Positions 4,500 through 24,080 of a stretch of DNA of 64,000 nucleotides are shown in pieces. A program made the position numbers and the translations under genes. The stretch is from an uncultured Eubacteriales bacterium (lineage in GTDB: Bacteria > Bacillota > Clostridia > Oscillospirales > Oscillospiraceae): positions 64,082-128,081 of the forward strand of contig URAM01000003.1 of assembly GCA_900545815.1 (NCBI GenBank). Direction: 5' to 3'. The notes under the pieces are model-generated. The model saw only the letters and a list, made by a program, of their open reading frames with translations. It was not told where the DNA came from and made no database searches. Positions within the stretch are counted from its first letter, which is position 1. Each line of letters starts with the position of its first letter.

Positions 4500-6443
4500 T
4501 TACAGCTGGCTGGCAGCCAGGAAACCGCTTTCCACTGCATAAGCGATGTTCCCATACTGGACACAAGTGCCAATGGTGTGACAGTTGGGGAAGGCTGCGA
4601 ACTGCTGGGCAACATCCTGGTTAGGACGCATCCCCATCGCCAAGATGACGGCATCGCAGGGCGCCGTTTTCCGAGTCCCGTCCTCGGTTTCAAAGATACA
4701 GCTGTCCGGAGCGATCTCCACCAGCTTGTGGCTGGTGGACTGAGGCACATCTCCCAGGCGGTGCTCAATGTCGATGATGTTCTGAAAATGCTCTCCGTGC
4801 GCCACCTCCGGCAGCAGGTCGTAGACGGAAACCCGATTTCCCTTGCTTTTCAAATACTCTGCCGTCTCTAGGCCAGTCATACCGGCGCCGATGACCACCA
4901 CCGTCTGTCCCTCCAAGGTGACCTTGTCGGTAAGCAAGTCGGAGGCGGTGTACACCTGACTGCCGTGGATACCGGGGATACGGCTGGGGATCAGAGGGGA
5001 CGCACCAGCGGCCACCAGAACGGCATAGGGGTGCAGCTCCGCCACTGCTTCCGGCGCAGCCGCCTGTCCCAGACGAACGGTGACGCCCAGTTTGTCCAAC
5101 TGATGGGTCAGGTAGCGGACGAAAGCCAGAATCTTCTCCTTGTGGGGCGGTTTCGCCGCCTGGAGGAGGGCGCCGCCCAGCCGGTCATTCTGCTCCCACA
5201 GGGTGACCTGGAACCCCCGCAGAGCCAGCACCCGTGCCGCCTCCATGCCAGCGGGGCCGCCGCCAATGACAGCCACAGGACGCCCGTCCCCGTCCTGACG
5301 CAAGGTGCTGCGGGTACACTCGAAGGCCCCCTGGGCATTGACTGCGCAGTGCATTTCGCCGCAGGCCATGGTTTTCATACAGTTCAGGCAGGAGATACAG
5401 GGGCGGATGTCCTCATCCCGACCTTCCAGCGCTTTGTTCGTCCACTCCGGATCAGCCAGGTGGGCACGGGCGGAGCCAACGAAGTCACAGACGCCGTCCT
5501 TCAGCAGTCCTTCGGCGTAGTCCGGTTCCCGAATCATCGCAGTGCAGACCACAGGGATGTCCACCACCTGCTTCAGCTCGTGGGCCAGCTCCACCTTCCA
5601 GCCCTGGTCAAAGCCGGTGGGCTCCCAGGCGGTGTTCATGGTCTCATAGATGCCGGAACTGACGTCCAACAGGTCTGCTCCGGCGTCCTGGAACAGTTTG
5701 GCGTACTCCTTGGACAGTTCCAGGGTGATGCCAGCTTCACGAGGCAGGCCGATATAGTCCAGATATTCACAGGCAGAGATACGGATGGCAATGGGGAATT
5801 CCGGCCCGCAGGCATCCCGAATGCCGTGGATGATCTCCAGAGCGAAGCGGGCGCGATTGGCCACGGAGCCGCCATAGTAGTCGGTGCGGTGGTTGGTGTA
5901 GGGGCTCAAAAACTGGTTGATGAGGTAGCCGTGGGCGGCGTGGATGAGCACCCCATCCACGCCGGCTTTCTGACAGCGGATGGCGCCATTGATGAACTTC
6001 TGCACCATGCAGGCGATCTCCTCGGTAGTCATGGCAATGACCGGTTGGCGGGTCAGGCCGCACTGGATGGCGCTGGGGGCAAACATCCGGCGTCCGCCGT
6101 TGAGGGCACTGTCCCCCTGGCGGCCAGGGTGGTACAGCTCCACAAAGAAGGCACAGCCGTAGGGGTGCAGGACATCCATGAGCTGGCAGTAGCCAGGGAT
6201 AAGCTTATCATCGTCAATGCACAGGTTTCTGGGGTTGGCACGGCCGGAGTTGGAGGATACCGAGACGGCTTCGCTCATGATGAGTCCTGCGCCGCCTTTG
6301 GCACGGGCTTCATAGAAGGCGATGTCCTCTGCGCTCATGGAGCCATCCAGATTGGACAGGGCATTGCCCATGGCTTCCATGATGACACGGTTCTTCACAG
6401 TGAGGGCGCCGATTTTACCAGGGGAACTGAGGTATGGTCTCAT
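4500..6443 (-). CDS. Two-domain flavoenzyme: N-terminal Old-Yellow-Enzyme TIM barrel (NADH:flavin oxidoreductase) fused to C-terminal FAD/NAD(P)-binding pyridine-nucleotide-disulfide-oxidoreductase domain (2,4-dienoyl-CoA-reductase / enoate-reductase architecture)
   Basis: Start reassigned to the ATG at 6441-6443 (MRPYLSSPGKIGALTVKNRVIM...), preceded by AAAAGGAG. The upstream 92 codons of the longer ORF are Pro/Ala/Gly-rich and have no SD. OYE motifs are present (HAAHGYLINQFLSP...TNHRTD). C-terminal VAVIGGGPAGMEAA Rossmann motif. Confidence 0.8.
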   Translation of the reverse strand: MRPYLSSPGKIGALTVKNRVIMEAMGNALSNLDGSMSAEDIAFYEARAKGGAGLIMSEAVSVSSNSGRANPRNLCIDDDKLIPGYCQLMDVLHPYGCAFFVELYHPGRQGDSALNGGRRMFAPSAIQCGLTRQPVIAMTTEEIACMVQKFINGAIRCQKAGVDGVLIHAAHGYLINQFLSPYTNHRTDYYGGSVANRARFALEIIHGIRDACGPEFPIAIRISACEYLDYIGLPREAGITLELSKEYAKLFQDAGADLLDVSSGIYETMNTAWEPTGFDQGWKVELAHELKQVVDIPVVCTAMIREPDYAEGLLKDGVCDFVGSARAHLADPEWTNKALEGRDEDIRPCISCLNCMKTMACGEMHCAVNAQGAFECTRSTLRQDGDGRPVAVIGGGPAGMEAARVLALRGFQVTLWEQNDRLGGALLQAAKPPHKEKILAFVRYLTHQLDKLGVTVRLGQAAAPEAVAELHPYAVLVAAGASPLIPSRIPGIHGSQVYTASDLLTDKVTLEGQTVVVIGAGMTGLETAEYLKSKGNRVSVYDLLPEVAHGEHFQNIIDIEHRLGDVPQSTSHKLVEIAPDSCIFETEDGTRKTAPCDAVILAMGMRPNQDVAQQFAAFPNCHTIGTCVQYGNIAYAVESGFLAASQL

Positions 6444-6463
6444 AAGGGAGTGCTCCTTTTCAT

Positions 6464-7330
6464 TCAGATTTTGGCTTCCAGGCCAGCTGGAAGGATGCGG
6501 TGGGGCCAGTGCTGCTCCTGCGCCCACTGGGCGGCATAGGAATCCGGCTCCACCAGCAGAAGCGGCTGCTGGCCGCCGGATGGGCCGAAGGGCATCTGGC
6601 CAAGGGACTGGACAGCCGCTGGGATGCGCAGGGTCTTTAGACCGGTACAGCCCCAGAAGGCCATAGAACCGATGCGTTCCACGGTCTCCGGCAGAGTCAG
6701 GTCGGTCAGAGAACTGCAATTACACAGGGCGCTGTCCTGGACCACCTCCAGCCGGTCGGGCAGGCGGAGGTGGCAGAGGGATCTACAGTCGTAGAGGGTC
6801 AGGAGGGACAGGGTACGCAGGCCATGGGGCAAGGTAAGGGATTCCAGGTGGACGCAGCCGCTGAAGGCCGCTTCACCGATCTGGGTGACGCCGTCTGGAA
6901 CGTCCATGGACCGAAGGAAATGGCAATTGGTAAAGGCGTCGCTCTCGATGCGGCGCAGGGTCTGAGGCAAGGTGACTTGCTCCAAATGGATGCATTTGCA
7001 GAAGGCCATCCGACCGATCCCCTCCACCCCCTCTGGCAAATTCACTTGCCGGAGGGTCTTCTTGTGGTAGAAGCCCCCCTTCCCCAACTGGGTCACCGGC
7101 TTCCCGTCCAGTTGGGCAGGCACGTCCACCTGGGTGTCCTCCCCTCGATAGGCGGTGAGGGTGACGCCTTCCGGAGTGGTCTCGTAATCCCACTGAGCGT
7201 TTCGGTGCTGTTGGAGGAGGGCTTGGAGGGTTTCTTTGGTATAAGTGACGCCGCAGAGGGTACACTGGATTTGACCGGATGCTTCCACGGTCAGGGTACC
7301 GCCGCAGACTTGACAGGTGAGAACAGACAT
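6464..7330 (-). CDS. Cytoplasmic leucine-rich-repeat (BspA-type LRR) protein with N-terminal CxxC...CxxC zinc-ribbon
   Basis: N-terminus MSVLTCQVCGGTLTV...QCTLCG, then about nine ~23-aa repeats of the form LxxIGxxAFxxCxxLxxLxLP. No signal peptide. Start either ATG 7330 or 7390. Confidence 0.65.
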   Translation of the reverse strand: MSVLTCQVCGGTLTVEASGQIQCTLCGVTYTKETLQALLQQHRNAQWDYETTPEGVTLTAYRGEDTQVDVPAQLDGKPVTQLGKGGFYHKKTLRQVNLPEGVEGIGRMAFCKCIHLEQVTLPQTLRRIESDAFTNCHFLRSMDVPDGVTQIGEAAFSGCVHLESLTLPHGLRTLSLLTLYDCRSLCHLRLPDRLEVVQDSALCNCSSLTDLTLPETVERIGSMAFWGCTGLKTLRIPAAVQSLGQMPFGPSGGQQPLLLVEPDSYAAQWAQEQHWPHRILPAGLEAKI

Positions 7331-7725
7331 GGGAAAACAGCTCCAATCAATGTTTTTTTCGACACAGAAATGTTGTGCTCCGACTTTCATTTTACTGCAT
7401 CCGCCAGCCGTTGTCGTGGTCGTTTCTTTTCAAAATAACCGGTATAACTGAAAAGAACGGACAAAAATCCACTGGTGAATGGCTACGGTCGGCAGCAGGA
7501 AAAGTGCAAAAAAATGTGGCAAAATTGCGATAAAATCCGGATAGAAGCTGTGTTTTTTATGGAATTTCTCACGATGACAACAGGCGGTCTAAGTGCTATG
7601 ATATTACTCACAAAGCCCCGTGGGATTCAACAGGCACCCTCCCTTACTCTTTCCGCCTGCCCGCTATGGTGCGCTTTGTTCCTCTTTGATTTGAAGTATT
7701 AGACCCCAAACTGAAAATAACAGAG

Positions 7726-7770
7726 GAAAAAACACCTTCCCGTTCTTAATCTGCGGGAAGGTGTTTTTCT
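7726..7770. terminator. Rho-independent terminator (both strands) of an orphan unit
   Basis: A-tract, stem ACACCTTCCCG / CGGGAAGGTGT, then TTTTT. Confidence 0.65.
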
Positions 7771-7785
7771 ATGCTCCCAGCACGC

Positions 7786-7825
7786 AAAAACACGGCAGCG
7801 TTTTCCAGACACTGCCGTGTTTTTG
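7786..7825 (-). terminator. Rho-independent terminator downstream of the second PucR regulator
   Basis: Stem ACACGGCAG / CTGCCGTGT flanked by an A-tract and a T-tract, ~25 nt after the stop of the minus-strand gene ending at 7849. Confidence 0.7.
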
Positions 7826-7848
7826 CATTCATGGGTATTACTCAGGCT

Positions 7849-9450
7849 TTACTCGTGTTCTTTCTCCTCTTCCTCCCCATCGGCGGCTTTGCCGGCGTTT
7901 TCATAGGCCATCAGGTTCATGATCTTCTCCGACAGCATGACCCAGAAGCAATCCCTGCTGTCCTCTCCCGTAAAGCCGGTCAAAGACTCGATGCGATTGA
8001 TGCGGTTTTTCAGGGTGTTGTAGTGGAGATACATGGTCTTGGCAGTGTTGGGGATGGAGCAGTGGTTTTTAGTGTAGACAAAGAGGGTGTTGAGCAGATC
8101 GGCGCTGGAGGGTGCGGCCTGGAGCTTCTTCACAGCCGGATGGAGCAGATCCCACAGGTTCACCTCTTTGCCCAGGGACAGGATCATATGGTACTCAAAG
8201 ATGTCCCGATAGCAGAGGATCTGCTGCTGCTCGTGCTCCTTGGAGATGGTGCGGAACTCGGTGCAGAACAAGGTCTGCTGGTAATAATTGCGCACCTGGT
8301 ACAGCTCGTGGAAATGAGTGGAGATGTTGGCGGTGCAGTTGAGCTTTTCCAGGACGGAGGAGAGCTGGCTGAGCCACTTCTCGTCTTGGGTGATGTTCTC
8401 CTCATTGGAGTCATAGAGCACCAAAAAACAGCCGTTAACCCAGATGACCAGATTGTTATGGAAGTAGGAACGGATACGCTGCAAGGTGAAGGAGATAATA
8501 TCGTTGGTGGTCTGGGAACCGATGAAGTTGATGCCGATGACGTAGAGGTATTTGTAGAATTTCAGGTTGTATAGCTCCTGACGGGAGAGGATCTCATATT
8601 TGTTGGTGAACTTCCCCTCCAGCAGCGAGTGCAGAAAGTCCTCCGTCAAAGAGACCACATCTGGGATGCGTCCCCGAGTGCTGCTGCGGACGAAGGGGAC
8701 ATAGTGGCTGAAGAGCTGGAACACCTGCAAGTCAAAATTGCTGACTGGATGGTTGGCCTCCAACAGTTTCAGGTAGCCCAGGACGATGTTGTTCTGATTG
8801 ACCCGCGTGGAATACTGCTTCACAGAGGTGACCTCGTTGGGCAGCTCCACCCGAATGTCTCCTAAAATCAAGTGATCCTCATCGGCAAAGGCGGAGCGGT
8901 TCATGATATAGCCGATGTACTTAGAGGAGAACATCTGGTTGTCCAGGGCGTAGCGCCAGGCATCCTCATTCCGGAGGACAGAGGTGCCGGCGTGGGCAAT
9001 GAGGTTAAAGGAGATGTCCACCAACATGAGGGGGTTGTTGAGGATGCTGTAGGCGTACTCCATGAGCTTGTGGATGTCCCCGCCGCCGTGGATGATGGAG
9101 ATGAGGGTGCGGGAGATATTGTCCAGCTTGGATTCTTCGGAGAGCAGTCCGGAGATCTGTTCGATGAGGGTAACGTATGCAGCTACAGAATGCACTACCA
9201 TCAGGTTCCCCTGCGCCGCCAGCGTATCCGGCGGCACCTCCTGTTCCGTGCAGAGCAGGAAATTTCCCTGGGGCGGGAGGGTCTGTTCCGTCAGATCTGG
9301 CGCTTTACTAATATAAAGGTAGTCTGGGCTGTAGGCGGTGTCCAGCTCACGGAGCTGTTTCAGACCGATGATCTTGGCTGTGGGACGCCGGCAGAGGATC
9401 TGTGCATCGGACGGCAGCAGATCCAGGATGCGTTCAACAGATATTTCCAT
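7849..9450 (-). CDS. PucR/CdaR-family transcriptional regulator, divergent from the ADH/ALDH operon
   Basis: Start at the ATG 9448-9450 (MEISVERILDLL...), preceded by GGAGGAA. C-terminal PucR HTH (...KTMYLHYNTLKNRINRIESLTGF...). Confidence 0.8.
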   Translation of the reverse strand: MEISVERILDLLPSDAQILCRRPTAKIIGLKQLRELDTAYSPDYLYISKAPDLTEQTLPPQGNFLLCTEQEVPPDTLAAQGNLMVVHSVAAYVTLIEQISGLLSEESKLDNISRTLISIIHGGGDIHKLMEYAYSILNNPLMLVDISFNLIAHAGTSVLRNEDAWRYALDNQMFSSKYIGYIMNRSAFADEDHLILGDIRVELPNEVTSVKQYSTRVNQNNIVLGYLKLLEANHPVSNFDLQVFQLFSHYVPFVRSSTRGRIPDVVSLTEDFLHSLLEGKFTNKYEILSRQELYNLKFYKYLYVIGINFIGSQTTNDIISFTLQRIRSYFHNNLVIWVNGCFLVLYDSNEENITQDEKWLSQLSSVLEKLNCTANISTHFHELYQVRNYYQQTLFCTEFRTISKEHEQQQILCYRDIFEYHMILSLGKEVNLWDLLHPAVKKLQAAPSSADLLNTLFVYTKNHCSIPNTAKTMYLHYNTLKNRINRIESLTGFTGEDSRDCFWVMLSEKIMNLMAYENAGKAADGEEEEKEHE

Positions 9451-9842
9451 AGGTTCCTCCTTTTCATGTATCGCTCGGAACAATTTGTCAGGTTTACAAA
9501 ATGTAACTTTGTGCAAACATTCCATTCTCTAACATATCGGTATTATCCCCAAATGACGTTGCTTTTAGAGTACCCTAATTCGGCGAAAAAAACAATCCTT
9601 AAAAAGGAAAACTCAAATTTCCACCACGGTTCCATGAAAAATTTCAACAAAATACTCCAATTCTGTTAGCATATTTTTTCAACTTCACGCTGAAAAAACC
9701 CGGTTTCATTCATCGGAACAAACAGAAGAATTGACGTTTCAGAAAGGCTTTTTGTGCATTATACTAAAGCCAGTGAGTGAATGAACGTGTCTGCGCAGGC
9801 AGAAGAACCTGTATATGAAAATTTTTGAGGAGGTTTTTCGGA

Positions 9843-11024
9843 ATGAATCGAGCCTATGAAAAGCTCTGCAACTACACACAGCAGTGCCCCGTCACCTTCG
9901 GCGTTGGCAGTATCGCCACCGTCAAGGACGCAATGGGTATGCTGGGCGCAAAGAAACTGTTCGTGGTCTACGACCAGGGCGTGAAGATGTCCGGTCTGGC
10001 CGAGAAGGTCACCAAGTCCCTGGATGAACAGGGCGTAGACTATATCACTTATGATGACATCACCGCTGAACCCGTGGAAGACGTGGTGGACAAGGCTTAC
10101 GAAGTGGCCAAGGAAGCCGGCTGTGACGGCGTTCTGGGTCTGGGCGGCGGCTCCCCCATGGATACTGCCAAAATCATCTCCGTCCTGCTGAAAAAGGGCG
10201 GCAAGACCAGCGATTATTTCCTGAGTAAGCTGGGCCCCATCTTCCACGATCATGTTCCCTCTCTGATGGTTCCCACCTCCAGCGGCACCGGCTCCGAAGT
10301 CACCTGCGTTGCGGTAGTCTCCGACATCAACCATGCCAAGGACGGCGTTCTGGCTGGCCCCTCCATGGCCATCGTTGACCCTGAGATGACCCTCACCTGC
10401 CCCCCGCTGAACACCGTCACCAGCGCACTGGACGCCTTCGCCCATGCTGCCGAAGCCTTCACCGCAGCAGATGTGGACCCCGTCAGCGACCAGTTGGCTC
10501 TGGAAGCCATCCGCTTGATCATGGCCAACCTGGACAAGGTCTATCACAACGGCGCTGACATCGAAGCTCGCACCCGTATGTCCATGGCCGCCAACATGGC
10601 TGGCATCGCCTTCAGCAACACCGGCGTCTCCTTCGGCCACGCTGCCGGTCACGAATTCGGCACCAAGTTCCACATCGGCCACGGCCTGGCTTGCTGCTAC
10701 AGCGTGCCCGTCACTCTGAAGTGGAACGCCATCAACAACACCGAACGCGCCAGAAAGATTGCCGAAGCCATGGGCATCGAAGGCTTTGACACCCTGGCTC
10801 CCGAAGAACTGGGCAAGGTCATGGCCGACATCATCGTGAAGATGATGAAGGACTACAAGGTTCCCACTATGGCAGAAAAGGGCGCCACCAGACAGGCTTG
10901 CATCGACCTGGCGGAGGACTCCATCGCCCACAACCAGATGCAGTATGCCGATGTGGTGCGTCCCATCCCCATCGAAGAATACCGCGAAATGCTGGCTGAG
11001 ATGTACGACCTGTCTGTTCAGTAA
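9843..11024 (+). CDS. Iron-containing (group III) alcohol dehydrogenase
   Basis: Start MNRAYEKL after GAGGAGG. Fe-ADH motifs GLGGGSPMDTAKI and the His-rich metal site (AHAAEAF...GHAAGHEFGTKFHIGHG). Confidence 0.85.
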   Translation: MNRAYEKLCNYTQQCPVTFGVGSIATVKDAMGMLGAKKLFVVYDQGVKMSGLAEKVTKSLDEQGVDYITYDDITAEPVEDVVDKAYEVAKEAGCDGVLGLGGGSPMDTAKIISVLLKKGGKTSDYFLSKLGPIFHDHVPSLMVPTSSGTGSEVTCVAVVSDINHAKDGVLAGPSMAIVDPEMTLTCPPLNTVTSALDAFAHAAEAFTAADVDPVSDQLALEAIRLIMANLDKVYHNGADIEARTRMSMAANMAGIAFSNTGVSFGHAAGHEFGTKFHIGHGLACCYSVPVTLKWNAINNTERARKIAEAMGIEGFDTLAPEELGKVMADIIVKMMKDYKVPTMAEKGATRQACIDLAEDSIAHNQMQYADVVRPIPIEEYREMLAEMYDLSVQ

Positions 11025-11120
11025 TCTCCGCTCCAACGCTCCCATTTTAATCAAGCAAACGTGAAAGAAACAGAATAACCAACATCTAATTTTAGCTATT
11101 TCCCATAGGAGGAACCTATT

Positions 11121-12467
11121 ATGTATAAAGAAATGCACGGTGTATTTGAAGTGATCGAAGACGCAATCGACGCAGCATACGAAGCACAGCGTATCCTGGA
11201 AGCCAACTACACCACTGAAGACCGTCAGAAGTTCATCGACGCTGTCAAGGCAGAAGCGCTGAAGGTGGTCAACGAAGAAACCATCAAGGAATTTGAAGAA
11301 ACCGGCTACGGCCGTCTGGATCAGAAGCTGGTCAAGAACTATGGCTCCATCGCAGAAAACCCCGGCGTAGAATCCCTGAAGCATGAAGTCCTGGCCTCCG
11401 GCAAGGGCGTCACCATCGACTTCGCCGCTCCCTACGGCACCGTTGGCGCTCTGACTCCTGTCACCAACGGTCTGGTCACCGTGGTCTGCAACACCCTGAG
11501 TATGCTGGCCGCTGGCAACACCATCGTTTTCAACGCCCATCCCGCTGGCAAGGAATCCGCTTGCAAGGCTTGCGACCTGGTCAACCGTGCCATCGTCGAA
11601 GCAGGCGGCCCCGACAACGTCTGCACCATGATCGCTGATCCTACTTATGAAACTCTGGATGTCATCATGGCTTCCGACAAGATCAAGATGCTCATCGGCA
11701 CCGGCGGCGAAGGCATGGTGGCCAAGCTCATGAGCTCCAACAAGAAGGTCATCGCAGCCGGCCCGGGCAACCCTCCTGCCGTCATTGATGAGACTGCCAA
11801 CGTCAAGCAGGCCGCCCAGGTTCTGTACGAAATGGTTCCCTTTGAAAACAATATGCTCTGCATCACCGAGAAGGAAGCCTTCGTTGTGGAGAGCGTCTAT
11901 GACGAATTCGTGGAAGCCATGAAGGAATGCGGCGCTCGCGTCCTGACCGAGGAAGAAGCACAGAAGGTCATTGACCTGTGCATCGCGCCCAACGCAGAAG
12001 GCAAGCTGATGCCCAACAAGAAGTTCGTCGGCAAGAACGCCAATGTCATCCTGAAGGCCGCCGGCCTGGAAGTGGACGAGAGCGTGGATCTGCAGCTGGC
12101 TGTCATCCTGACCGACAGTGTGGATCATCCCTATGTTATGTGCGAACAGCTCATGCCCATCTTCCCCATCTGCAAGGTCAAGGATTGGGACGCAGCTATG
12201 GCCGCAGCCATCAAGGCAGAAGCGGGCTGCCACCACTCCGCCTGCGTCTGGACTGCTTCTCTGGAACGGGCTACCGCTCTGGGCAAGGCACTGGGCTGCA
12301 CCTGCTTCGCCATGAACGGCCCCACCGTTGGCGGCACCGGCATGATGGGCACCGGCTACGGCTCCCCCACCATCGCTGTCTCCACCGGCGAAGGCTTCAC
12401 CACCCCCAACACCTTCACCAGATTCCGCCGCTTCGCTATGTGCCAGGGCGCTGCCTACATGGGCTAA
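11121..12467 (+). CDS. CoA-acylating aldehyde dehydrogenase of the PduP/EutE family
   Basis: Blocks typical of PduP/EutE: GALTPVTNG...VCNTLSMLAAGN, GTGGEGMV, IAAGPGNPPAVIDETANVKQAA, FENNMLCITEKE (catalytic Cys). AGGAGGAA SD. Confidence 0.85.
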   Translation: MYKEMHGVFEVIEDAIDAAYEAQRILEANYTTEDRQKFIDAVKAEALKVVNEETIKEFEETGYGRLDQKLVKNYGSIAENPGVESLKHEVLASGKGVTIDFAAPYGTVGALTPVTNGLVTVVCNTLSMLAAGNTIVFNAHPAGKESACKACDLVNRAIVEAGGPDNVCTMIADPTYETLDVIMASDKIKMLIGTGGEGMVAKLMSSNKKVIAAGPGNPPAVIDETANVKQAAQVLYEMVPFENNMLCITEKEAFVVESVYDEFVEAMKECGARVLTEEEAQKVIDLCIAPNAEGKLMPNKKFVGKNANVILKAAGLEVDESVDLQLAVILTDSVDHPYVMCEQLMPIFPICKVKDWDAAMAAAIKAEAGCHHSACVWTASLERATALGKALGCTCFAMNGPTVGGTGMMGTGYGSPTIAVSTGEGFTTPNTFTRFRRFAMCQGAAYMG

Positions 12468-12650
12468 GGATAGCGAGCATCCCCTTTTTGCACACAACCA
12501 CTGTCTAATTTGTCCCTTATGAGGCAGTGACATCCGTCCCCGGGTACCACTGGATTACGGGAATCCGCCAAGATCCATGCGTATCCGGGGACAAGCTGTC
12601 AGAGAGAAGGCTCGTTGCTGTCTCTGAAAAGTCAAAAGAGGAGGTTCTTT

Positions 12651-13895
12651 ATGGAAATCAAAAAACTGAACTACGGTTGGGGTGTCAAACTGGCCGTCCT
12701 GCTCATCATCTGTGTGCAGTACACTGTCACCATCACCTCCCCCATCCTGGGCACCATCATGGAAGCGTTCCCGGAACACGCCAGCATGGTCAAGCTGCTG
12801 GAGACTATCCCCACCTTTGCAGCCGTGATCATCTCCATCCTGCTGGGACCGCTGATGAAGGTCTTTTATAAGAAGCAGCTGCTGCTGTTCGGCATCGCCC
12901 TGTCCTTCTTCCAGTTCATCCCCGCCATCGTCCCCGGCTTCTGGCCCCTGTTCATCTGCCGTACAGTCGCCGGCTTCGGCATCGGCTTCATGTACTCCTT
13001 CGCCGCTTCCTTCGCCGTCGATATGTTCGACGAAAAGGGCGCTGCGGATATGCTGGGTCTGAGAAGCACCCTGGGCGCTGTCATGGGCATCGTCTATCAG
13101 CAGCTGTCCGCCCGCTTCGCCGTGGCCTCCGGCAGCTATCAGCGCTCCTTCATGGTCGCTCTGATTCTGGTTCCCATCTTCCTGTACATCCTGTTCATGA
13201 TGCCCAAGAGCTGCCCAGTGGAGGACTACAATCGGGAACAGGCAAAGCTGCCCCATGAAGAAAAGGCCAAGGAAAAGATCTACTACCCCCTGACCATCGC
13301 TCTGCTGGCCGTCCAGTTCCTGACCCTGCTGTTCTCCTACGCATTCATGACCAACGTCTCCATCGTCACCAGCACCGCTGTGGAAGCTGGCGGCATGGGC
13401 ATGACCGCGGCCACCGCAGCAAACGTGCTGTCCGTCTTTACCGTGGCCATCGCCGTGGGCGGCCTGCTCTACGCCAGAGTGTGGTGCCGTATCTTCAAGA
13501 ACTTCACCACCGGCGCCGGCATCCTGTTCCTCTGCGTAGGCATGATCATCAACTTCACTGCCGCCAAAAGCTGTAGCCTGCCCCTGCTGATGGTGGGTAC
13601 TGTGCTGTATGGTTTCGGCTTCGAAATGAACAACTCTCACCTCTGCCAGCTCCTCCCCCTGACCTCCGTCCCCTCCGCTGCCGCTTCCCTGCTGGGCGTC
13701 ATGTACGCCTGCATCAACCTGGGCAGCTTCGCCGCCGGCTTTATCACTCCTGTCATCTCCAAGGCCATCTTCGGCGAAGGCATCCTGGCTGACTGGAACC
13801 TGTGCATCTTCGGTCTGGCCATCAGCACCGTCCTGATGCTCGTCTGCTGCGGCGCGGTCAACAAGCAGGTCAAAGCAAAATCCACTCAGCAGTAA
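12651..13895 (+). CDS. MFS transporter
   Basis: Start MEIKKLNYGW after GAGGAGG. 12 predicted TM helices with the typical MFS loop pattern. Confidence 0.75.
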   Translation: MEIKKLNYGWGVKLAVLLIICVQYTVTITSPILGTIMEAFPEHASMVKLLETIPTFAAVIISILLGPLMKVFYKKQLLLFGIALSFFQFIPAIVPGFWPLFICRTVAGFGIGFMYSFAASFAVDMFDEKGAADMLGLRSTLGAVMGIVYQQLSARFAVASGSYQRSFMVALILVPIFLYILFMMPKSCPVEDYNREQAKLPHEEKAKEKIYYPLTIALLAVQFLTLLFSYAFMTNVSIVTSTAVEAGGMGMTAATAANVLSVFTVAIAVGGLLYARVWCRIFKNFTTGAGILFLCVGMIINFTAAKSCSLPLLMVGTVLYGFGFEMNNSHLCQLLPLTSVPSAAASLLGVMYACINLGSFAAGFITPVISKAIFGEGILADWNLCIFGLAISTVLMLVCCGAVNKQVKAKSTQQ

Positions 13896-14083
13896 GTCTG
13901 CCACACAACGAAACACAACTGAATGGATGTGCCGTACAGAAGTGGGCCACAATGCCTGAAGTGACCTCTGTACGGAAGCGGACAGGATTCCCCCTGTCCC
14001 AAGGGAAAACCGGAGAGGGCAACCTCTCCGGTTTTTCCCCCACCTTATCATCCTCTACTCCGATACGAGAAGGAACAAAACCT

Positions 14084-15382
14084 ATGAAAGAACAAGTACG
14101 CTCCTCTCAATTCCAGACGACTCGGAGCAATTTCGGCGCCTGGGGCTGGTTCACCATCCTCTTCGCATTCTTCTCCTTCATGTTCGCCGGCAACCTGATC
14201 GTAGACGGCATGAACATCACCGTCTCCGCCTTCGCCCAGCTGCGTGGCTGGCAGAGCGGGGTACTGCTGAGTTACTCCACCGTGGCAGGGCTGATCTCCA
14301 TCGTTGGCTGCGTTGTCCTCAGCAACAGTGTGTGCAGATACGGGGTCAAGATCGTTTACTGCATCAGTCTGGCCATTGTGGCTCTGTGCTGTATGGTCTG
14401 GGGTGCAGTGACCCAGCTGTGGCAGTACGTCCTCATCCTCATCCTGGTCAATATCTTCGGCAACGGCTTCGGTTTCGTGGGCGGCACCGCCATTCTCTCC
14501 AACTGGTTTCCTCGGAAAAAGGGTCTGGCCATGGGCTGGGCCACCATCGGCTTCCAAGCCTCTCCCGTCCTCATGCTCCCCACCTTCTCCTGGGTCATGC
14601 ATCGGTTCAACCTGCGCATCGCCTATCAGACGGTGGGTGCGTGCCTGCTGGTCATGCTACTGGTGTGCATCTTCTTGGTCAAGAGTGATCCGGAAGAGCA
14701 TGGCTGTGCGCCGGACAACGACTGGACCCACACCTTGGAGGAATTCAAGGCGCTGCATGAAAAGGCAGTGGCATACGAAAAGAGCCACCACCTGACCACC
14801 GCCCAGCTGCTCAAGACCAAGCAGATGTGGCAGATCGGGGTGGTCAACGGACTGCTACAGATGGCCATCACCGTCCTCATCGTCCAGTTCATCCCCAATA
14901 TGATCGCCTGCGGCTTCTCCGCCTCTACCTCCACCGCCATCTATTCTGTCGCTTCTATCCTGGGCGGTGTGGGCAGCTACCTGTGGGGATTGCTGGATCA
15001 GAAGGTGGGTGTGAAAAAGGCCACCGTTTGGATGTGCCTCATGCACGCCATCGCCGGCGCCGCCTTCGCCGTGGCTGCGGGACATCTGATCGAGGGGCCG
15101 GCGGTGCCCCTGTTCGGCGCCTTTATCGTTGGCTCCATCCTAGGCGTCTCCTCCAACTACGTTGGCTCCTTCACCGCCACCGTCTTTGGCCGCTACGGCT
15201 ACGCCCGTGCCTTCGGGCTGGTCTACATGGTGGTCTGCGCCCTGCGCTCTGCCGGTTATGCCCTCATCGGTGTGATCCAGACCGCCACCGGCAGTTACAC
15301 ACTCTCTTACTGGATCGCAGGCATCCTGAGTCTGCTGGCGCTGGCGCTGACCTTCCGCATTGATGACCGCTGCATCGGCTGA
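14084..15382 (+). CDS. MFS transporter (oxalate/formate-antiporter-like OFA-type features)
   Basis: Start MKEQVRSSQF after GAGAAGGAA. The upstream part of the long ORF overlaps the previous gene and is non-hydrophobic. Motif ...LSNWFPRKKGLAMGW... and 12 TM segments. Confidence 0.7.
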   Translation: MKEQVRSSQFQTTRSNFGAWGWFTILFAFFSFMFAGNLIVDGMNITVSAFAQLRGWQSGVLLSYSTVAGLISIVGCVVLSNSVCRYGVKIVYCISLAIVALCCMVWGAVTQLWQYVLILILVNIFGNGFGFVGGTAILSNWFPRKKGLAMGWATIGFQASPVLMLPTFSWVMHRFNLRIAYQTVGACLLVMLLVCIFLVKSDPEEHGCAPDNDWTHTLEEFKALHEKAVAYEKSHHLTTAQLLKTKQMWQIGVVNGLLQMAITVLIVQFIPNMIACGFSASTSTAIYSVASILGGVGSYLWGLLDQKVGVKKATVWMCLMHAIAGAAFAVAAGHLIEGPAVPLFGAFIVGSILGVSSNYVGSFTATVFGRYGYARAFGLVYMVVCALRSAGYALIGVIQTATGSYTLSYWIAGILSLLALALTFRIDDRCIG

Positions 15383-15404
15383 CCACAGGGAAAGGAGAAC
15401 GACC

Positions 15405-16244
15405 ATGGGGGATTGGAACCATGTGAACGGCTACCTCATCCGGCCGGAGCTGCAATACGCCGTGGAAGCAGCGCTGACCCTGAACAAGCCTCTCCTCCTC
15501 CGAGGCGAACCGGGCACGGGAAAGACCGGTCTGGCGCAGGCTGCTGCTCAAGCGCTCCAACGGCCGCTGCTGGTGTGGAACCTGAAATCGGACGCCAAGG
15601 CCAACCAAGGTCTATACCAATATGACGGGGTACGGCGGCTGTACGACAGTCAACTGCTGCGTGCGGCCGTCCCTGGCCGTCCCCGTCCCAAGGATCTGAC
15701 CGCCTATCTGCACCTGGGGCAGCTGGGACAGGCGTTTGTGTCCCACGAACCGGTGGTGCTGCTCATCGACGGCATCGACAAGGCGGATTTGGACTTCCCC
15801 GGCGACTTACTGTGGGAGTTGGAACGGGGACAATTCCAGATTGCCGAGACGGGAGCGGTCATCCAGGCTCGGCATCCCCCCTTGGTGCTCCTGACCTCCA
15901 ACGGAGAAAAGGAACTGCCCGTCGCCTTTCTCCGGCGCTGTCTGTTCTATGTCATCCCCTTTCCGGAGAAAGACGAAATGCGTGCCATCCTCTCCGTCCA
16001 CACCGGACTGGATGCGCTGCCGCCGGAACGGTTCGACCGAGCGTTGGAGGTATTCTACTGGATCCGCTCCCTGACCACACTGCAAAAGAAGCCCGGTACC
16101 TCCGAGCTGCTGGATTGGCTCCACGCCCTGGCTCTGACTGGGGCAGAGCCGGATGGGCTGCCTTATCTGGGGACGCTGCTGAAGCTGGAGGGGGACTGGG
16201 CAAAGGTACAGCAATACTGGAAGGGGCGACAGAATGTTCACTGA
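15405..16244 (+). CDS. MoxR-class AAA+ ATPase (CoxD/CbbQ/NorQ-like, ~280 aa)
   Basis: Start MGDWNHV after AAAGGAGAA. Walker A GEPGTGKT, Walker B VLLIDGIDKAD, sensor/Arg finger region. Confidence 0.8.
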   Translation: MGDWNHVNGYLIRPELQYAVEAALTLNKPLLLRGEPGTGKTGLAQAAAQALQRPLLVWNLKSDAKANQGLYQYDGVRRLYDSQLLRAAVPGRPRPKDLTAYLHLGQLGQAFVSHEPVVLLIDGIDKADLDFPGDLLWELERGQFQIAETGAVIQARHPPLVLLTSNGEKELPVAFLRRCLFYVIPFPEKDEMRAILSVHTGLDALPPERFDRALEVFYWIRSLTTLQKKPGTSELLDWLHALALTGAEPDGLPYLGTLLKLEGDWAKVQQYWKGRQNVH

Positions 16245-17442
16245 ATTCTTCTATTTGCTGCGGCAGGCGTATGGCCTGAACCTCTCCCTGCCTGAATGGC
16301 AGACCCTGCTCCGAGGGCTGGAGGCGGGTCTGCACCGGAACAGCCTGCTGGGCTTTTACGAGCTGTGCCGCCTGACCTTGGCCAAGAGCGAGAGCGACCT
16401 GGACAAGCTGGATCGGGGCTTTCTGGACTACTTCGGAGACATCGACCTGTTGGAATCGGTGCCGGAGGCGTTCATGGAGTGGCTGGCGCATCCGGAAGTG
16501 CAGGACAACGGCGTTTACAACTTCAAATTGGCGGAAGCAAACGATGCCTACTCCAACAACGAAGTCTCCCAGATGTTCCGAGAACGGCTGCGCACCCAGA
16601 AGGAGGAGCACAACCGAGGCAATTTCTATGTGGGCACCAGCGGCGTCTCCCCCTTCGGACGCAATGGGTACAGTCCCAAAGGCGTGCGGGTGGGGGGAGA
16701 AGGCCGGTTCCGCCGTGCCTTCTCCGTGGCTCAGCGACGGGAATTCCGAGATTTCCGAGAGGATCAGGTGCTGGACTTGCGGCAGATGCAGGTCGCCTTC
16801 CGGCGCCTGCGGCAGTACTCTGGTCGAGAGGATGTGCCGGAAACGGAATTCGCCCTGGACAAGACCATCCACGCCACCTGCCAGAACGGCGGCTGTCTGC
16901 GGGTGGTCTACGAAAAGCCCCGAAAAAACACCATCAAGCTGGCTCTGCTCATGGACAGCGGCGGCTCCATGTACCACTACGGCCGTCTCTGCTCCACTCT
17001 GTTCCATGCGGCCAATCAGGCCAACCACTGGAAGGATTTCAAACTTTTCTACTTCCACAACTGTGTCTATGACCAGCTCTACACCGACCCTCGCTGTCAG
17101 GATCAAAGCGCCATCGCCACCGAACAGGTCTTGCGTCAGCTGACATCAGACTACCGGCTCATGTTCGTAGGTGACGCCCAGATGAACCCAGATGAACTGT
17201 TACGCACCTCCTACTTCTCATTCAGCCGTTACGGCGTCAACAAGACGCCAGGGATTCAGTGGCTGAAGCGGTTCAAGGATCGCTATCCCCATCTGGTCTG
17301 GGTCAATCCGGAAGGGCGTCCCTCCGGCGGCAAGTTCTGGACGACCAGCTATGACGCCATCTCCGACCTGTTCGGCGGGATGTATCAGCTGACCCTGGAG
17401 GGGCTCAACGAAGCATTCAAAACACTGCTGGCCAAGGCATAG
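16234..17442 (+). CDS. VWA-domain protein of the CoxE family (partner of MoxR ATPase)
   Basis: ATG overlaps the stop region of the ATPase gene by 11 nt (translational coupling). CoxE-like N-terminus. C-terminal VWA/MIDAS region (ALLMDSGGSMY). Confidence 0.75.
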   Translation: MFTEFFYLLRQAYGLNLSLPEWQTLLRGLEAGLHRNSLLGFYELCRLTLAKSESDLDKLDRGFLDYFGDIDLLESVPEAFMEWLAHPEVQDNGVYNFKLAEANDAYSNNEVSQMFRERLRTQKEEHNRGNFYVGTSGVSPFGRNGYSPKGVRVGGEGRFRRAFSVAQRREFRDFREDQVLDLRQMQVAFRRLRQYSGREDVPETEFALDKTIHATCQNGGCLRVVYEKPRKNTIKLALLMDSGGSMYHYGRLCSTLFHAANQANHWKDFKLFYFHNCVYDQLYTDPRCQDQSAIATEQVLRQLTSDYRLMFVGDAQMNPDELLRTSYFSFSRYGVNKTPGIQWLKRFKDRYPHLVWVNPEGRPSGGKFWTTSYDAISDLFGGMYQLTLEGLNEAFKTLLAKA

Positions 17443-17445
17443 TGG

Positions 17446-17485
17446 AAACAGGCGTTCGATTGTTTATCGAACGCCTGTTTTGTGT
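17446..17485 (+). terminator. Rho-independent terminator after the VWA gene
   Basis: Stem AAACAGGCGTTCGAT / ATCGAACGCCTGTTT with loop TGTTT, then TTTGTGTATTTT. Confidence 0.8.
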
Positions 17486-17820
17486 ATTTTAGTCATTTTC
17501 TACGATGTCACTGGTGAAAAATGCAGCATTTCACAGGAGCGATGTGGGGGAAGGTTGCCAGATGGAATCGCAAGGAGTGTGAATATTTTTGCGGAAAACT
17601 TGGATGATTTTCAGTTTATTTTCGATATTTAAGTATTTTGTTCCGATGACACTCCCCCCTTCCAATGCTATCATGAAAGCAGATCAAGGCCCGCTCAGGG
17701 GTTACATCCTTCCACCCCATGGTCATTCACTCACTTGTGCCCCCTGGGCGGCCCCTATGTCAAGGAAACTTGTCCCTCTATAAATGAGATAAAATCCAAA
17801 CCAATACAAAGGAGAACAAT

Positions 17821-19035
17821 ATGGACGCACCTCTGAAAGGAATTAAAGTGCTGGAACTGGGCACTCATGTAGCGGTTCCCTCTGCCTGCCGGCTGATGGC
17901 AGAGTATGGCGCGGACGTGATCAAGATTGAGACTGCCGGTGGCGACCCCTGGCGTTACTCTGGGTTGAACGTCAACCTGACCATTGATGATTTCTCCTGC
18001 CCCGTCTTTACCATCCAGAACAACGGCAAGCGCCTGATCAGCCTGGATCTGAAAACCGAAGGCGGCAGAGCAGTGTTTATGAAGCTGCTGGAGAACACCG
18101 ATGTGTTCTGCACCAGCGTGCGCATGAAGGGTCTGGCCAAGATGGGGCTGGACTACGACACCCTGAAAAAAAAGTTCCCCAAGCTCATCTACTTCCACTT
18201 CACCGGCTACGGTCACCGCGGCCCCGACGCCGAAGCCCCCGGCTTCGACATCGCCTCCTTCTGGTCTCGGGTCGGCGCCCGTGTGGGTTGGGTGGAGGAA
18301 GGTACCTTCCCCGTCCGTGCCTCCGGCGGCTATGGCGACATGGTCACCGGTCTGCTCATCTTCGCTGGTATGGTCACCGCCCTGCGGGGTCGTGACGTCA
18401 CCGGCAAGGGCACCCTGGTCACCAACTCTCTCTTTGGCACCAGTATGTGGGTCAACGCACAGTCCATCATGTGCGCACAGCCCCCTTACAACCACCACTT
18501 CCCCGAGGACGTAGACCGTCCCGGCAGCCCCATGGTCTATGACTATGTGTGCAAGGACGGCGAATGGCTGGCGTTGGTGGGCATCGGCTATGAGAAGAAC
18601 TTCTCCCGCTACTGCAAAGCCCTGGGCATGGAAGAAGAAATCGACGACCCCCGCTGTCAGAATGAAAAAACCCTGGCGGACAGCGACTACATCTATGACC
18701 TGACCATGAAGGTGCGTGCCAAGATGAAGGAAAAGACCTCTTACGAATGGGAGGACATCTTCCGCAAGGCCGACCTGGTCTACTCCCGCCTGAACCACTT
18801 TGAGGACGTGCCCAAGGACGAACAAGCCTGGGCCAACGACTACCTCCAGGAAGTCACCTGGGGCAATGGCGTCACCAACGCCGTCGTTCGTCCTCCCCTC
18901 CACTTCAAGAGCTACGAACAGCGTGAGACTGTCTCCCTGGGCGGCATCGGCCAGCACACCGATGAAGTCCTGAAGGAATACGGCTTCACCCAGGAAATCA
19001 TTGACACCATGCGTACCAACAAAGAGATCATCTGA
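17821..19035 (+). CDS. Family III CoA-transferase (CaiB/BaiF/Frc family)
   Basis: Family-III N-terminal motif LKGIKVLELGTHVAVPSACRLMAEYGADVIKIE. AAAGGAGAA SD. Confidence 0.85.
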   Translation: MDAPLKGIKVLELGTHVAVPSACRLMAEYGADVIKIETAGGDPWRYSGLNVNLTIDDFSCPVFTIQNNGKRLISLDLKTEGGRAVFMKLLENTDVFCTSVRMKGLAKMGLDYDTLKKKFPKLIYFHFTGYGHRGPDAEAPGFDIASFWSRVGARVGWVEEGTFPVRASGGYGDMVTGLLIFAGMVTALRGRDVTGKGTLVTNSLFGTSMWVNAQSIMCAQPPYNHHFPEDVDRPGSPMVYDYVCKDGEWLALVGIGYEKNFSRYCKALGMEEEIDDPRCQNEKTLADSDYIYDLTMKVRAKMKEKTSYEWEDIFRKADLVYSRLNHFEDVPKDEQAWANDYLQEVTWGNGVTNAVVRPPLHFKSYEQRETVSLGGIGQHTDEVLKEYGFTQEIIDTMRTNKEII

Positions 19036-19103
19036 TCGCATCCCTCTCTGGTGAATTGGATTGTTTTATCTTTTCCATTTTCACCCGCCTATCATTCATG
19101 GGG

Positions 19104-19150
19104 ACACCCCTCCGCCGCACCCGACGGAGGGGTGTTTCTCCCTTTTCCTC
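19104..19150 (+). terminator. Rho-independent terminator after CoA-transferase
   Basis: Stem ACACCCCTCCG / CGGAGGGGTGT, then a T-rich tail. Confidence 0.7.
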
Positions 19151-19286
19151 AGACTGGGGGAAAATTTCCCTGTACAAACTCCGGCGAATCGTTATAATAG
19201 AGTTACTATCCTTCTCTCCACGCTTTCTAACTGTGCTGGAACAGAAGATACCATTCTATTATATCAAGGTAAGGAACGTGAACGCT

Positions 19287-20678
19287 ATGGAACAAGGAAC
19301 CGCCAAGCTGGATATGCTCCACGGCTCTATTTGGGACAAACTCCTCCGGTTTGCCCTGCCAGTCGCCGCCACAGCGGCGTTAGGGCAGCTGTTTAATGCT
19401 GCGGACGTAGCCGTAGTGGGCAACTTTGCCAGCGGCAGCCGCACCGCCGCCGTAGCCGCCGTAGGCGCCAACGGGCCGATTATCAACCTGATCTTGGGGC
19501 TTTTCATCGGCATCGCTCTGGGCGCCACCGTAGTCATCGCCAACGCCATTGGCAACAACGACAGAAAAAGCGCACAAAACGCCGTTCACACCTCCATGGT
19601 CATGGCGGTGATAGGAGGGGTCATCGTAGCCATCATCGGCGAGCTGATCGCCGGCAGCCTGCTGAACCTGCTTCAGGTGCCAGAGGACGTCTACCCCCTC
19701 TCCCTGCTCTACCTGCGCATCTATTTCTTGGGTATGCCCGCCATCTTGCTCTACAACTTTGAAGCCGCTATCTTCCGCAGCATCGGCGAGACTAAGGTAC
19801 CGCTCATCGCCCTGGCCGCCTCCGGTGTCCTGAATGTGCTGCTGAACCTGCTGTTCGTCATTGGGTTCCATATGACTGTCAATGGCGTAGCCATCGCCAC
19901 GGTGCTATCTAATGTAGTCAGCTCCATCCTTTTATACCGGAAACTGCGGAAAAGCGACCAGTACATCCATGTGGAACCGCAGCTGCTGACCATTCACTGG
20001 GGCAGCTTCCGCCAGATCATGCGCATTGGCTTGCCCGCCGGCATCCAGAGCGCAGTCTTTGCCATCTCCAACATCGTCATCCAGTCCGCCATCAACAGCT
20101 TGGGCACCATCGTCATGGCCGCTTCCAGCGCTGCGCTGAACATCGAGATTATCGCCTATTACGTCATGAACTCCTTCAGCCAGGCTTGCGCCACCTTTGT
20201 GGGACAGAATTATGGTGCAGGGCAGGTCAAGCGCTGCCGAAAAATTCTCGGCCTGTGCATCTTAGAGGATGCCATTGCCACTGCGTCCGCCATTTTTATC
20301 ATTCTCTTTGCCGGAAAATTCGTTCTGGCGCTGTTCAACCCAGACCCCCAGGTCATCGACATCGGCTATTCTCGACTGCTCATCGTCTTTACTGCCTACG
20401 TCTTTAGTATGCTCTACGAGGTTATGTCTGGCTACCTTCGCGGATTTGGCATTTCCTTGGCGCCCGCCTTGCTGGTCATCTTCGGCGTTTGCGGAATACG
20501 CATCCTCTGGATTTCCTTCGTGTTCCCCGTCAAGCGCACCTTTTCCACCATCCTGTACGTCTATCCGATTAGTCTAGCCACAACCGCCTTGCTCATCGGC
20601 ATCGCTCTGTTGGTTTTCCGACCGTCCAAACGGCTGGCAGGACAGGCACAGAACGCCGATTCCGCCTCAGCAACTTGA
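19287..20678 (+). CDS. MATE-family efflux transporter
   Basis: Start MEQGTAKLDML. CGTTATAAT -10 element ~90 nt upstream. 12 TM helices with MATE-like repeat. Confidence 0.75.
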   Translation: MEQGTAKLDMLHGSIWDKLLRFALPVAATAALGQLFNAADVAVVGNFASGSRTAAVAAVGANGPIINLILGLFIGIALGATVVIANAIGNNDRKSAQNAVHTSMVMAVIGGVIVAIIGELIAGSLLNLLQVPEDVYPLSLLYLRIYFLGMPAILLYNFEAAIFRSIGETKVPLIALAASGVLNVLLNLLFVIGFHMTVNGVAIATVLSNVVSSILLYRKLRKSDQYIHVEPQLLTIHWGSFRQIMRIGLPAGIQSAVFAISNIVIQSAINSLGTIVMAASSAALNIEIIAYYVMNSFSQACATFVGQNYGAGQVKRCRKILGLCILEDAIATASAIFIILFAGKFVLALFNPDPQVIDIGYSRLLIVFTAYVFSMLYEVMSGYLRGFGISLAPALLVIFGVCGIRILWISFVFPVKRTFSTILYVYPISLATTALLIGIALLVFRPSKRLAGQAQNADSASAT

Positions 20679-24077: not shown

Positions 24078-24080
24078 CGG

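Follow-up and report, generated by a model that had tools for sequence, protein, structure and literature searches.

Clostridium kluyveri converts succinyl-coenzyme A (succinyl-CoA) to succinate semialdehyde and then to 4-hydroxybutyrate by means of SucD and 4HbD. The Pdu and Eut systems (PduQ, PduP/EutE, PduL/Pta and PduW/Ack) fork an aldehyde to an alcohol and, by way of an acyl-CoA, to an acid. In Enterococcus gilvus, the iron-type alcohol dehydrogenase HpfD (PF00465) reduces the anionic 3-sulfopropionaldehyde, and the CoA-acylating HpfX (PF00171) together with HpfYZ oxidises the same compound with a gain of ATP and without shells (PMC11489063). Here we describe a gene cluster around a CoA-acylating aldehyde dehydrogenase (ALDH) in a 64,000-nucleotide stretch, called the window below, of contig URAM01000003.1 (assembly GCA_900545815.1) from an uncultured Eubacteriales bacterium of the Oscillospiraceae. 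We regard the cluster, with moderate confidence, as a catabolic module under PucR control that works on a single aldehyde intermediate without a microcompartment. Flux most likely runs from aldehyde to acyl-CoA to acid, with a CoA-transferase as the exit step.

A first-pass annotation of the letters had reported nine elements between 7849 and 19035, and all nine were found again at or close to the same places with Pfam, NCBIfam and metagenome gene calls. Families were assigned by Pfam and NCBIfam profile searches against curated cut-offs, and gene starts were adjusted from metagenome gene calls of identical sequence (offset +1120). With two upstream genes added, the cluster reads as follows.

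4500-6443, minus strand: putative 2-enoate-reductase-type FMN/FAD/[4Fe-4S] flavoenzyme, 647 aa (Oxidored_FMN, Pyr_redox_2)
6464-7330, minus strand: zinc-ribbon/LRR_5 protein, 288 aa (LRR_5, 186 bits)
7849-9450, minus strand: PucR-family regulator, 533 aa in the metagenome gene calls (HTH_30, 54.7 bits)
9843-11024, plus strand: iron-type (group III) alcohol dehydrogenase (Fe-ADH), 393 aa (PF00465, ADH_Fe_C)
11121-12467, plus strand: CoA-acylating ALDH of the PduP/EutE subfamily, 448 aa (NF011927/PRK15398)
12651-13895, plus strand: MFS transporter 1, 414 aa (MFS_1, 80.9 bits)
14084-15382, plus strand: MFS transporter 2, 432 aa, organic-anion (monocarboxylate-transporter-like) (MFS_1, 111 bits)
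15405-16244, plus strand: MoxR-like AAA+ ATPase, 279 aa (AAA_5, 48 bits), starting 22 bp after MFS 2
16234-17442, plus strand: CoxE-like VWA protein, 402 aa (PF05762, 32.2 bits against a cut-off of 26.4)
17445-17481, plus strand: intrinsic terminator closing the Fe-ADH-to-VWA unit, with a 16-bp stem and a T-run
17821-19035, plus strand: family-III CoA-transferase, 404 aa (PF02515, 264 bits against a cut-off of 23.3)

Likened by family, the cluster resembles Hpf of E. gilvus (PMC11489063) in that an Fe-ADH and an acylating ALDH would act on one charged aldehyde with no microcompartment, the acyl-CoA would go on to an acid, and dedicated transporters are present; relatives of its ALDH/CoA-transferase pair also adjoin HpfG-like glycyl-radical enzymes. 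It differs from Hpf in that the window has neither an HpfG/HpfH radical enzyme nor an HpfYZ ligase, the exit is a family-III CoA-transferase, and the cluster has in addition an enoate-reductase-type flavoenzyme and an LRR_5 protein. With Pdu and Eut it shares the ALDH subfamily (NF011927) and the possible fork of an aldehyde to alcohol and, through acyl-CoA, to acid, and its relatives use a phosphotransacylase and a kinase. Unlike Pdu and Eut, it lacks shell proteins, an encapsulation peptide and any B12 or radical dehydratase/lyase; its exits are Ptb/Buk-type enzymes or a CoA-transferase instead of PduL/PduW, and its regulator is of the PucR family. The C. kluyveri cat1-sucD-4hbD set likewise combines a CoA-transferase, a CoA-dependent semialdehyde dehydrogenase and an Fe-ADH on an anionic C4 compound without shells. 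However, Cat1 is a family-I transferase, and the acetylating succinate-semialdehyde dehydrogenase 8cei matches the window's ALDH at only 122 bits, as opposed to 288 bits for ALDHs of bacterial microcompartments (BMC). We found no described cluster of PucR, enoate reductase and ALDH in the literature.

To examine conservation, we retrieved the neighbourhoods of ALDH relatives and scored them with the window's own proteins. The gene order given by the first-pass annotation was borne out, and recurs in full, including the MoxR/VWA pair, in a second species (locus L174; ALDH 95% identical). In L092 (ALDH 89%), the flavoenzyme, an LRR_5-like gene, PucR, Fe-ADH, ALDH and both MFS genes are followed by the CoA-transferase (87%), 138 bp after MFS 2. 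L093 and L087/88 (ALDH 64-68%) carry the same set, except that the CoA-transferase is missing and Ptb and Buk come straight after the ALDH. The Coriobacteriales relatives (ALDH 56-59%) have Fe-ADH, ALDH, Ptb, Buk, an MFS and one or two flavoenzymes. A partial core was found in L089-91, L100, L104 and L011, and in L089-91 Ptb and Buk again directly follow the ALDH, with the CoA-transferase absent. Identities for MFS 1 were 92% (L174), 66% (L092), 51% (L093) and 49% (L087), and for MFS 2 they were 87%, 66%, 62% and 63%, respectively. Some of the relatives come from assemblies labelled human gut metagenome.

The PucR gene is divergent from the Fe-ADH operon in the window and occupies the same position in L174, L092, L093 and L087/88. 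Wherever a relative's flank is long enough, the flavoenzyme and the LRR_5 protein accompany PucR, Fe-ADH, ALDH and two MFS genes; thus, the conserved core reaches upstream of 7849-19035, and that range was too short, missing the partners at 4500-7330. The genes around the core differ among relatives: thiI/maf and lepA in L092, dxs and mutS in L087, and rloB/MATE in L093. Since the order recurs in L174 and the core recurs at 56-89% ALDH identity, the arrangement is not due to chance. The neighbourhood comparison that the first-pass annotation had suggested therefore supports its PucR-linked module: the genes are co-conserved across related species, as a functional unit under a divergent PucR gene.

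The ALDH was the only one among the reported genes to score above a curated subfamily cut-off (NF011927, 466.2 bits against 403). Its closest solved structures are the BMC aldehyde dehydrogenases 4c3s and 5jfl, at about 285-288 bits. Cys247, in the motif NNMLCITEKE, is invariant in two alignments of homologues, and we take the cysteine of NN(L/M)xC(I/V)xEK to be the catalytic residue. Across the whole 64-kb window there is no shell gene (no PduA-like match), no Ptb/Buk, no glycyl-radical enzyme and no HpfYZ ligase. In the ALDH, the conserved GVF motif begins after only 6 residues, as against about 25-40 in seven of the eight shell-linked homologues examined, and the NF011927 profile aligns from its position 30 onward; compared with these eight N-termini, that of the window's ALDH has no amphipathic encapsulation peptide.

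A shell gene was present in 1 of 42 loci at an ALDH identity of at least 44%, as opposed to 110 of 131 at 43% or less. The matches listed in a scan of genome contigs with the ALDH were mostly distant, shell-linked homologues and did not include the source species. The enzyme belongs to a whole shell-free clade. The first-pass annotation was right that no shell genes accompany this PduP/EutE-type ALDH; their absence, which it had called unusual, is normal for the clade.

Conservation within the cluster is highest for the ALDH and the CoA-transferase, at 95% and 95.5% identity in L174 and at 89% and 87% in L092. The CoA-transferase clade is tight (65-100% identity, the next matches being at 51% or less). 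In all six other readable contexts of this clade (69-80% identity), an ALDH 59-64% identical to the window's lies no more than 10 kb away. Of these contexts, five (L098/99, L176, L177 and L178) have one arm with an MFS, a 93-aa gene, a zinc-dependent alcohol dehydrogenase (Zn-ADH), a glycyl-radical enzyme, its activase and the ALDH, and a divergent arm with TPR, DUF4125, in some cases DUF4037, and the CoA-transferase. L176 (902-11221), from other Clostridia, is an example of this divergent layout. A limonene-degradation operon (PMC12583861) likewise combines DUF4125 and DUF4037 with a CoA-transferase.

The glycyl-radical enzymes beside the ALDH/CoA-transferase pair score 891-908 bits on the HpfG model for 2,3-dihydroxypropane-1-sulfonate (DHPS) dehydratase, for which the cut-off is 1000, and the L105 enzyme, from a more distant cluster, scores 1022 bits. 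On these scores, they are most likely aldehyde generators. As the aldehyde is then most likely made next door, the ALDH and the transferase in those clusters would run from aldehyde to acid.

The sixth context (L094, 7984-16555) contains no radical enzyme. Its genes encode a Zn-ADH, an ALDH, small aconitase-like subunits, a TctCBA tricarboxylate transporter and an HpcH/HpaI-family aldolase/lyase, and its aldehyde source is probably different and carboxylated. Two distant ALDH/Ptb/Buk clusters, L103 (1479-15595) and L105 (12-17444), with ALDHs 46-47% identical to the window's, also have no shell genes. L103 has three open reading frames (ORFs) of the size of a glycyl-radical enzyme (about 805-815 aa, one of them profiled) and L105 has two (about 845 aa), of which the profiled one passes the HpfG cut-off. 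Each of these two clusters includes an Fe-ADH and an Oxidored_FMN flavoenzyme related at 32-33%.

Taken across the relatives, the CoA-transferase and Ptb-Buk alternate at one pathway position. The relatives' butyrate kinase passes NCBIfam cut-offs (399 bits against 222), and their Ptb scores 283 against 399. This alternation, together with the pairing with aldehyde-forming enzymes, favours the direction from aldehyde through acyl-CoA to acid. We infer both this direction and the role of each transporter. One MFS would import an organic anion and the second would probably export the product. The Fe-ADH and the ALDH would share one aldehyde, either one after the other, so that alcohol becomes aldehyde and then acyl-CoA, or as a fork that balances redox, with the aldehyde going both to alcohol and to acyl-CoA. 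The CoA-transferase would then free the acid from the acyl-CoA by passing CoA to another acid, a step that in the distant relatives would fall to phosphate butyryltransferase and butyrate kinase with a yield of ATP. The flavoenzyme and its LRR_5 companion may saturate a C=C bond, whether in the substrate, in the product or in a co-substrate, and re-oxidise NAD(P)H.

The opposite direction had been proposed in the first-pass annotation: an imported acid would be activated by the CoA-transferase, reduced by the ALDH in reverse and converted by the Fe-ADH to an alcohol. Such a route would serve as an electron sink. The enzyme families permit this route, C. kluyveri offers a precedent, the nearest one, with the homologous SucD and 4HbD, and the best subfamily matches of the transferase use succinate or dicarboxylates. 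However, with the Ptb-Buk of the relatives each acid reduced would cost ATP, and orthologues of the ALDH and the transferase lie downstream of aldehyde-forming glycyl-radical enzymes. The route would also bring no energetic gain over ethanol formation and would have no need for an enoate reductase. The Ptb-Buk substitution and the radical-enzyme neighbours point instead from aldehyde to acid, and we consider the reductive route unlikely.

For the catabolic direction, our best guess at the substrate, by analogy, is a charged C3-C5 aldehyde or alcohol. Compounds resembling 4-hydroxybutyrate/succinate semialdehyde or 3-hydroxypropanesulfonate/3-sulfopropionaldehyde could fill this role; an unsaturated alcohol or aldehyde is another candidate. 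A charged aldehyde cannot leak through membranes; this would account for the transporters as well as for the missing compartment. In a more specific version, which we find improbable, the organism would cross-feed on a charged omega-hydroxy compound released by other fermenters (3-hydroxypropanesulfonate or 4-hydroxybutyrate). After import, this compound would be oxidised through a charged aldehyde and a CoA thioester to 3-sulfopropionate or succinate, with the flavoenzyme as an electron sink and the thioester energy kept by CoA transfer.

The Fe-ADH meets both Pfam gathering scores (PF00465, 144.7 bits; ADH_Fe_C, 115.1 bits), and a ribosome-binding site, GAGGAGG, precedes its ATG at 9843. It reached no NCBIfam equivalog cut-off, including those for GbsB (241 bits against 550), FucO (215/523), SarD (214/700), EutG and 4-hydroxybutyrate dehydrogenase, the last of which (198/500) sets it apart from 4HbD. 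MFS 1 came near the cut-off of no NCBIfam family. The best NCBIfam match of MFS 2 was the SfMCT L-lactate transporter (93 bits against 320).

The CoA-transferase falls under the cut-offs of all characterised subfamilies, among them succinate-glutarate (147 bits against 750), YfdE (118/522) and CaiB (94/413); no model for BaiF was among the profile-search results. It belongs to an uncharacterised clade. An aspartate is present in SGGYGDMVTG, and this GYGD residue is presumably catalytic, by analogy only.

One candidate named in the first-pass annotation was a route from oxalate through oxalyl-CoA and glyoxylate to glycolate, with an Frc-like transferase and an OxlT-like antiporter. Some similarity is indeed there. 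The transferase scores 129 bits on TIGR03253 and 145 bits on NF003809, the Frc models, in alignments limited to residues 1-204; its top match in the Protein Data Bank is 3ubm (Frc), over residues 3-204; and MFS 2 scores 44 bits on the OFA model TIGR00890 and 36 bits on the OxlT model TIGR04259. The cut-offs of 504 and 442 for Frc and of 375 and 335 for OFA and OxlT are missed threefold or more, so that both labels, Frc-like for the transferase and OFA-like for the permease, are weak. The succinate-glutarate model scores as high as Frc. The glycine-rich active-site loop GGGGQ is a feature of Frc, and the transferase's translation does not contain it. Ptb-Buk, the butyrate-kinase equivalogs and a conserved enoate reductase are unfit for a C2 dicarboxylate. 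The oxalate route is very nearly untenable on these grounds, and we rejected it. A bile-acid (bai-like) reading, prompted by the combination of family-III transferase, MFS and Oxidored_FMN enzyme, was also rejected, as no other bai gene was found and the bile-salt MFS model scored 59 bits against 400.

The flavoenzyme at 4500-6443 has an Oxidored_FMN domain (220 bits) and a Pyr_redox_2 domain (92 bits) with two Rossmann motifs. Its FMN domain is closest to old yellow enzymes (OYEs) of the YqjM type, with which it shares the motif IHAAHGYLI, and it has the His-His-Tyr site of classical ene-reductases and the cysteine cluster CISCLNC...C..HC. The H-x-x-H-x-Y FMN site, the [4Fe-4S] cysteine cluster and the Rossmann domains for FAD and NAD(P)H are features of clostridial 2-enoate reductases and YqjM-type OYEs, and on these motifs the clostridial 2-enoate-reductase type describes the protein best. 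Among solved structures, the CoA-ester reductases NCR (250 bits) and FadH (237 bits) match it best over the full length. However, in place of IHAAHGYLI these have IVGY (NCR) and SEGY (FadH). Since the protein does not share the active-site residues of either, we disfavour a dienoyl- or aryl-CoA reductase of the FadH or NCR kind. An amine dehydrogenase of the trimethylamine dehydrogenase (TMADH) or histamine dehydrogenase type is disfavoured because the protein is nearer to the reductases and has both Rossmann motifs and the His-His-Tyr site. Homologues (29-70% identity) stand beside ADH/ALDH genes in L092, L093, L087/88, L089-91 and L011.

The LRR_5 gene is separated from the flavoenzyme gene by 20 bp. 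Its product begins with a zinc-ribbon-like CxxC...CxxC motif, continues with BspA-type LRR_5 repeats and shows no signal peptide, and is therefore predicted to be cytoplasmic. Homologues lie beside PucR or the flavoenzyme in L092 (48%), L093 (35%) and L087/88 (31%), and the protein is co-conserved with the PucR/flavoenzyme/ADH/ALDH cluster in at least four species.

The regulatory sequence of the cluster contains a repeated element at two promoter-like sites.

9710-9722, plus strand: 13-nt motif TCATCGGAACAAA, just upstream of the Fe-ADH promoter-like site at 9738-9765
17637-17649: second copy of TCATCGGAACAAA, inverted, overlapping the -35 element of the CoA-transferase promoter-like site
17646-17674, plus strand: CoA-transferase promoter-like site, ATGACA-17-TATCAT, TG-extended

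The 64 kb contain no other exact copy. L174 has degenerate copies at the corresponding places, as does L093 between PucR and Fe-ADH; in L092, the block is conserved in the alignment only. The positions suggest a candidate shared operator for co-regulation of the Fe-ADH and the CoA-transferase, through which PucR may exert its control.

Between the two promoters, the terminator at 17445-17481 is strong (-25.5 kcal/mol, z = -6.6, none of 200 shuffles equally stable). In L174 (about 9212-9246) it is kept by a compensatory C-G to T-A change, the two versions of the stem being CAGGCG...CGCCTG and CAGGTG...CACCTG, and the CoA-transferase promoter and motif are conserved there as well. A leader of about 145 nt (17678-17820; about 9440-9580 in L174) is better conserved than the sequence upstream of the promoter. 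It gave no Rfam match, and its folding is no better than that of shuffles (z = -0.65). Rfam searches of the 64-kb window at gathering thresholds, and of 7300-19200 at E values up to 1, revealed no riboswitch or leader that would name a ligand.

The terminator and the separate promoter ahead of the CoA-transferase could also mean that there is no single pathway: the Fe-ADH-to-VWA operon, the CoA-transferase (perhaps with a MATE transporter gene downstream) and the flavoenzyme/LRR_5 pair would be independent units in a metabolic island. The distance of 460 bp between PucR and the LRR_5 gene fits such a picture, as does the nature of 1-28.4 kb, a catabolic patchwork that contains another PucR and another flavoenzyme besides several transporters. 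Against it, the same partners stay together across species despite different flanking genes, the CoA-transferase clade is near a related ALDH in six of six other contexts examined, and the motif is common to both promoters. We therefore consider independent units decidedly unlikely. The transferase, which the first-pass annotation had included in the module, is functionally tied to the ALDH in spite of its own promoter after the terminator.

Several points nevertheless weigh against the module as we read it. Given the strong terminator and the separate promoter predicted from the sequence, co-transcription of the operon and the CoA-transferase is unlikely in this genome. The statistics of the motif are weak: with up to two mismatches, at least two matches arose in 34 of 100 shuffles. 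The flavoenzymes near the more distant relatives are 29-47% identical and may not be orthologous. The four enzyme steps are all reversible, and context alone cannot fix their direction. Since no obvious aldehyde generator is present in the window, L174, L092, L093 or L087/88, the entry compound (alcohol, aldehyde or enal) is a guess. The idea of a charged substrate draws on transporter families and analogy. Finally, no substrate was assigned because no enzyme reaches an equivalog cut-off; in this we agree with the first-pass annotation, which held that the substrate could not be told from sequence.

The MoxR/VWA pair had been listed as part of the module. It lies between MFS 2 and the terminator in only two related species, the window's and that of L174, and is absent from L092 and from all Ptb-Buk relatives. 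MoxR/VWA pairs are known to mature metalloenzymes (CoxD/E, NorQ/D and CbbQ/O). By this precedent, the pair could be an integral maturation or repair chaperone for the iron site of the Fe-ADH or the [4Fe-4S] cluster of the flavoenzyme. Its placement, 22 bp after MFS 2 and before the operon terminator, is kept in both species; the VWA gene overlaps the MoxR gene by 11 bp, and conservation of the VWA protein is high (81% in L174), its family motif LLMDSGGSM being intact. However, L092 and all other relatives with the same Fe-ADH and flavoenzyme have no such pair, and the ATPase, 69% identical in L174 where the ALDH is 95% identical, evolves fastest in the cluster.

We compared MoxR copies from the window, L174 (7169-8011) and L175 (7176-7988). 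The Walker A motif GEPGTGKT is present, and the Walker B motif reads LLIDGIDKAD in the window and L174 and LLIDEIDKAD in a stand-alone Anaerotignum homologue. With glycine in place of the Walker B glutamate, the operon-embedded ATPase may bind ATP without hydrolysing it. The VWA protein has 3128 homologues, the named ones from Firmicutes such as Anaerotignum, where the MoxR/VWA pair stands alone among housekeeping genes. The best NCBIfam match of the ATPase is the MadB model (106 bits against 475), and our literature search on the "MadB" AAA ATPase found nothing relevant. PADLOC placed the MoxR, VWA and LRR_5 proteins in no defence family. An integral chaperone is doubtful; the pair is most likely a lineage-specific accessory or a later passenger, not a core step.

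The cluster is flanked by further catabolic genes.

1390-2946, minus strand: second PucR-type regulator with a GGDEF_2 domain
3334-4443: PF00756 "putative esterase"
19287-20678, plus strand: MATE efflux transporter (MatE, 157 bits; TIGR00797, 198 bits against a cut-off of 147)
21951-22817: shikimate/quinate-dehydrogenase-like gene
22851-24077: MFS of the second catabolic cluster
24081-24590: shikimate-kinase-like ORF
24621-25466: AP_endonuc_2 TIM-barrel gene, dehydroshikimate-dehydratase-like fold
25523-26398: second shikimate-dehydrogenase-like gene
26455-28383: second Oxidored_FMN/Pyr_redox_2 flavoenzyme, 36% identical to the first

The MATE gene follows the CoA-transferase in L174, stands beside the flavoenzyme in L093 and is absent in L092; the transporter is a possible accessory of the module. 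The second cluster (20850-28383) is opened by a LysR regulator on the minus strand and looks like a quinate/shikimate-type utilisation unit. Upstream, 17-4443 holds a GntP-family permease besides the second PucR-type regulator and the putative esterase. Because of these upstream genes together with the two flavoenzymes, 1-28.4 kb looks like an island for plant-derived acids or esters.

The remainder of the window, 28-64 kb, consists of cell-division and sporulation housekeeping genes. A dcw cluster and SpoIIGA lie in 28814-39315 and 44836-45765, the dcw members being FtsZ, an FtsQ-like protein, a MurA-like protein, MurG, FtsW, MraY, a Mur ligase and a PASTA-domain penicillin-binding protein. 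These genes mark the host as a spore-forming Firmicute. The exact ALDH sequence is present in 1504 blocks of a public assembly collection; thus, the source organism is common, though uncultured.

All proteins of the module belong to known families and the pathway logic has published precedents, so that the locus represents familiar enzymes in a new arrangement and not a new type of system. The alternation of CoA-transferase and Ptb-Buk is a natural case of exchangeable acyl-CoA exits and can be used for annotating similar clusters. The substrate, once defined, would fill a missing step in maps of gut carbon or organosulfur flow and would assign a function to the shell-free PduP-like clade, whose members are automatically annotated as "propionaldehyde dehydrogenase". 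If the product were 3-sulfopropionate, the organism would be linked to sulfide production by Bilophila.

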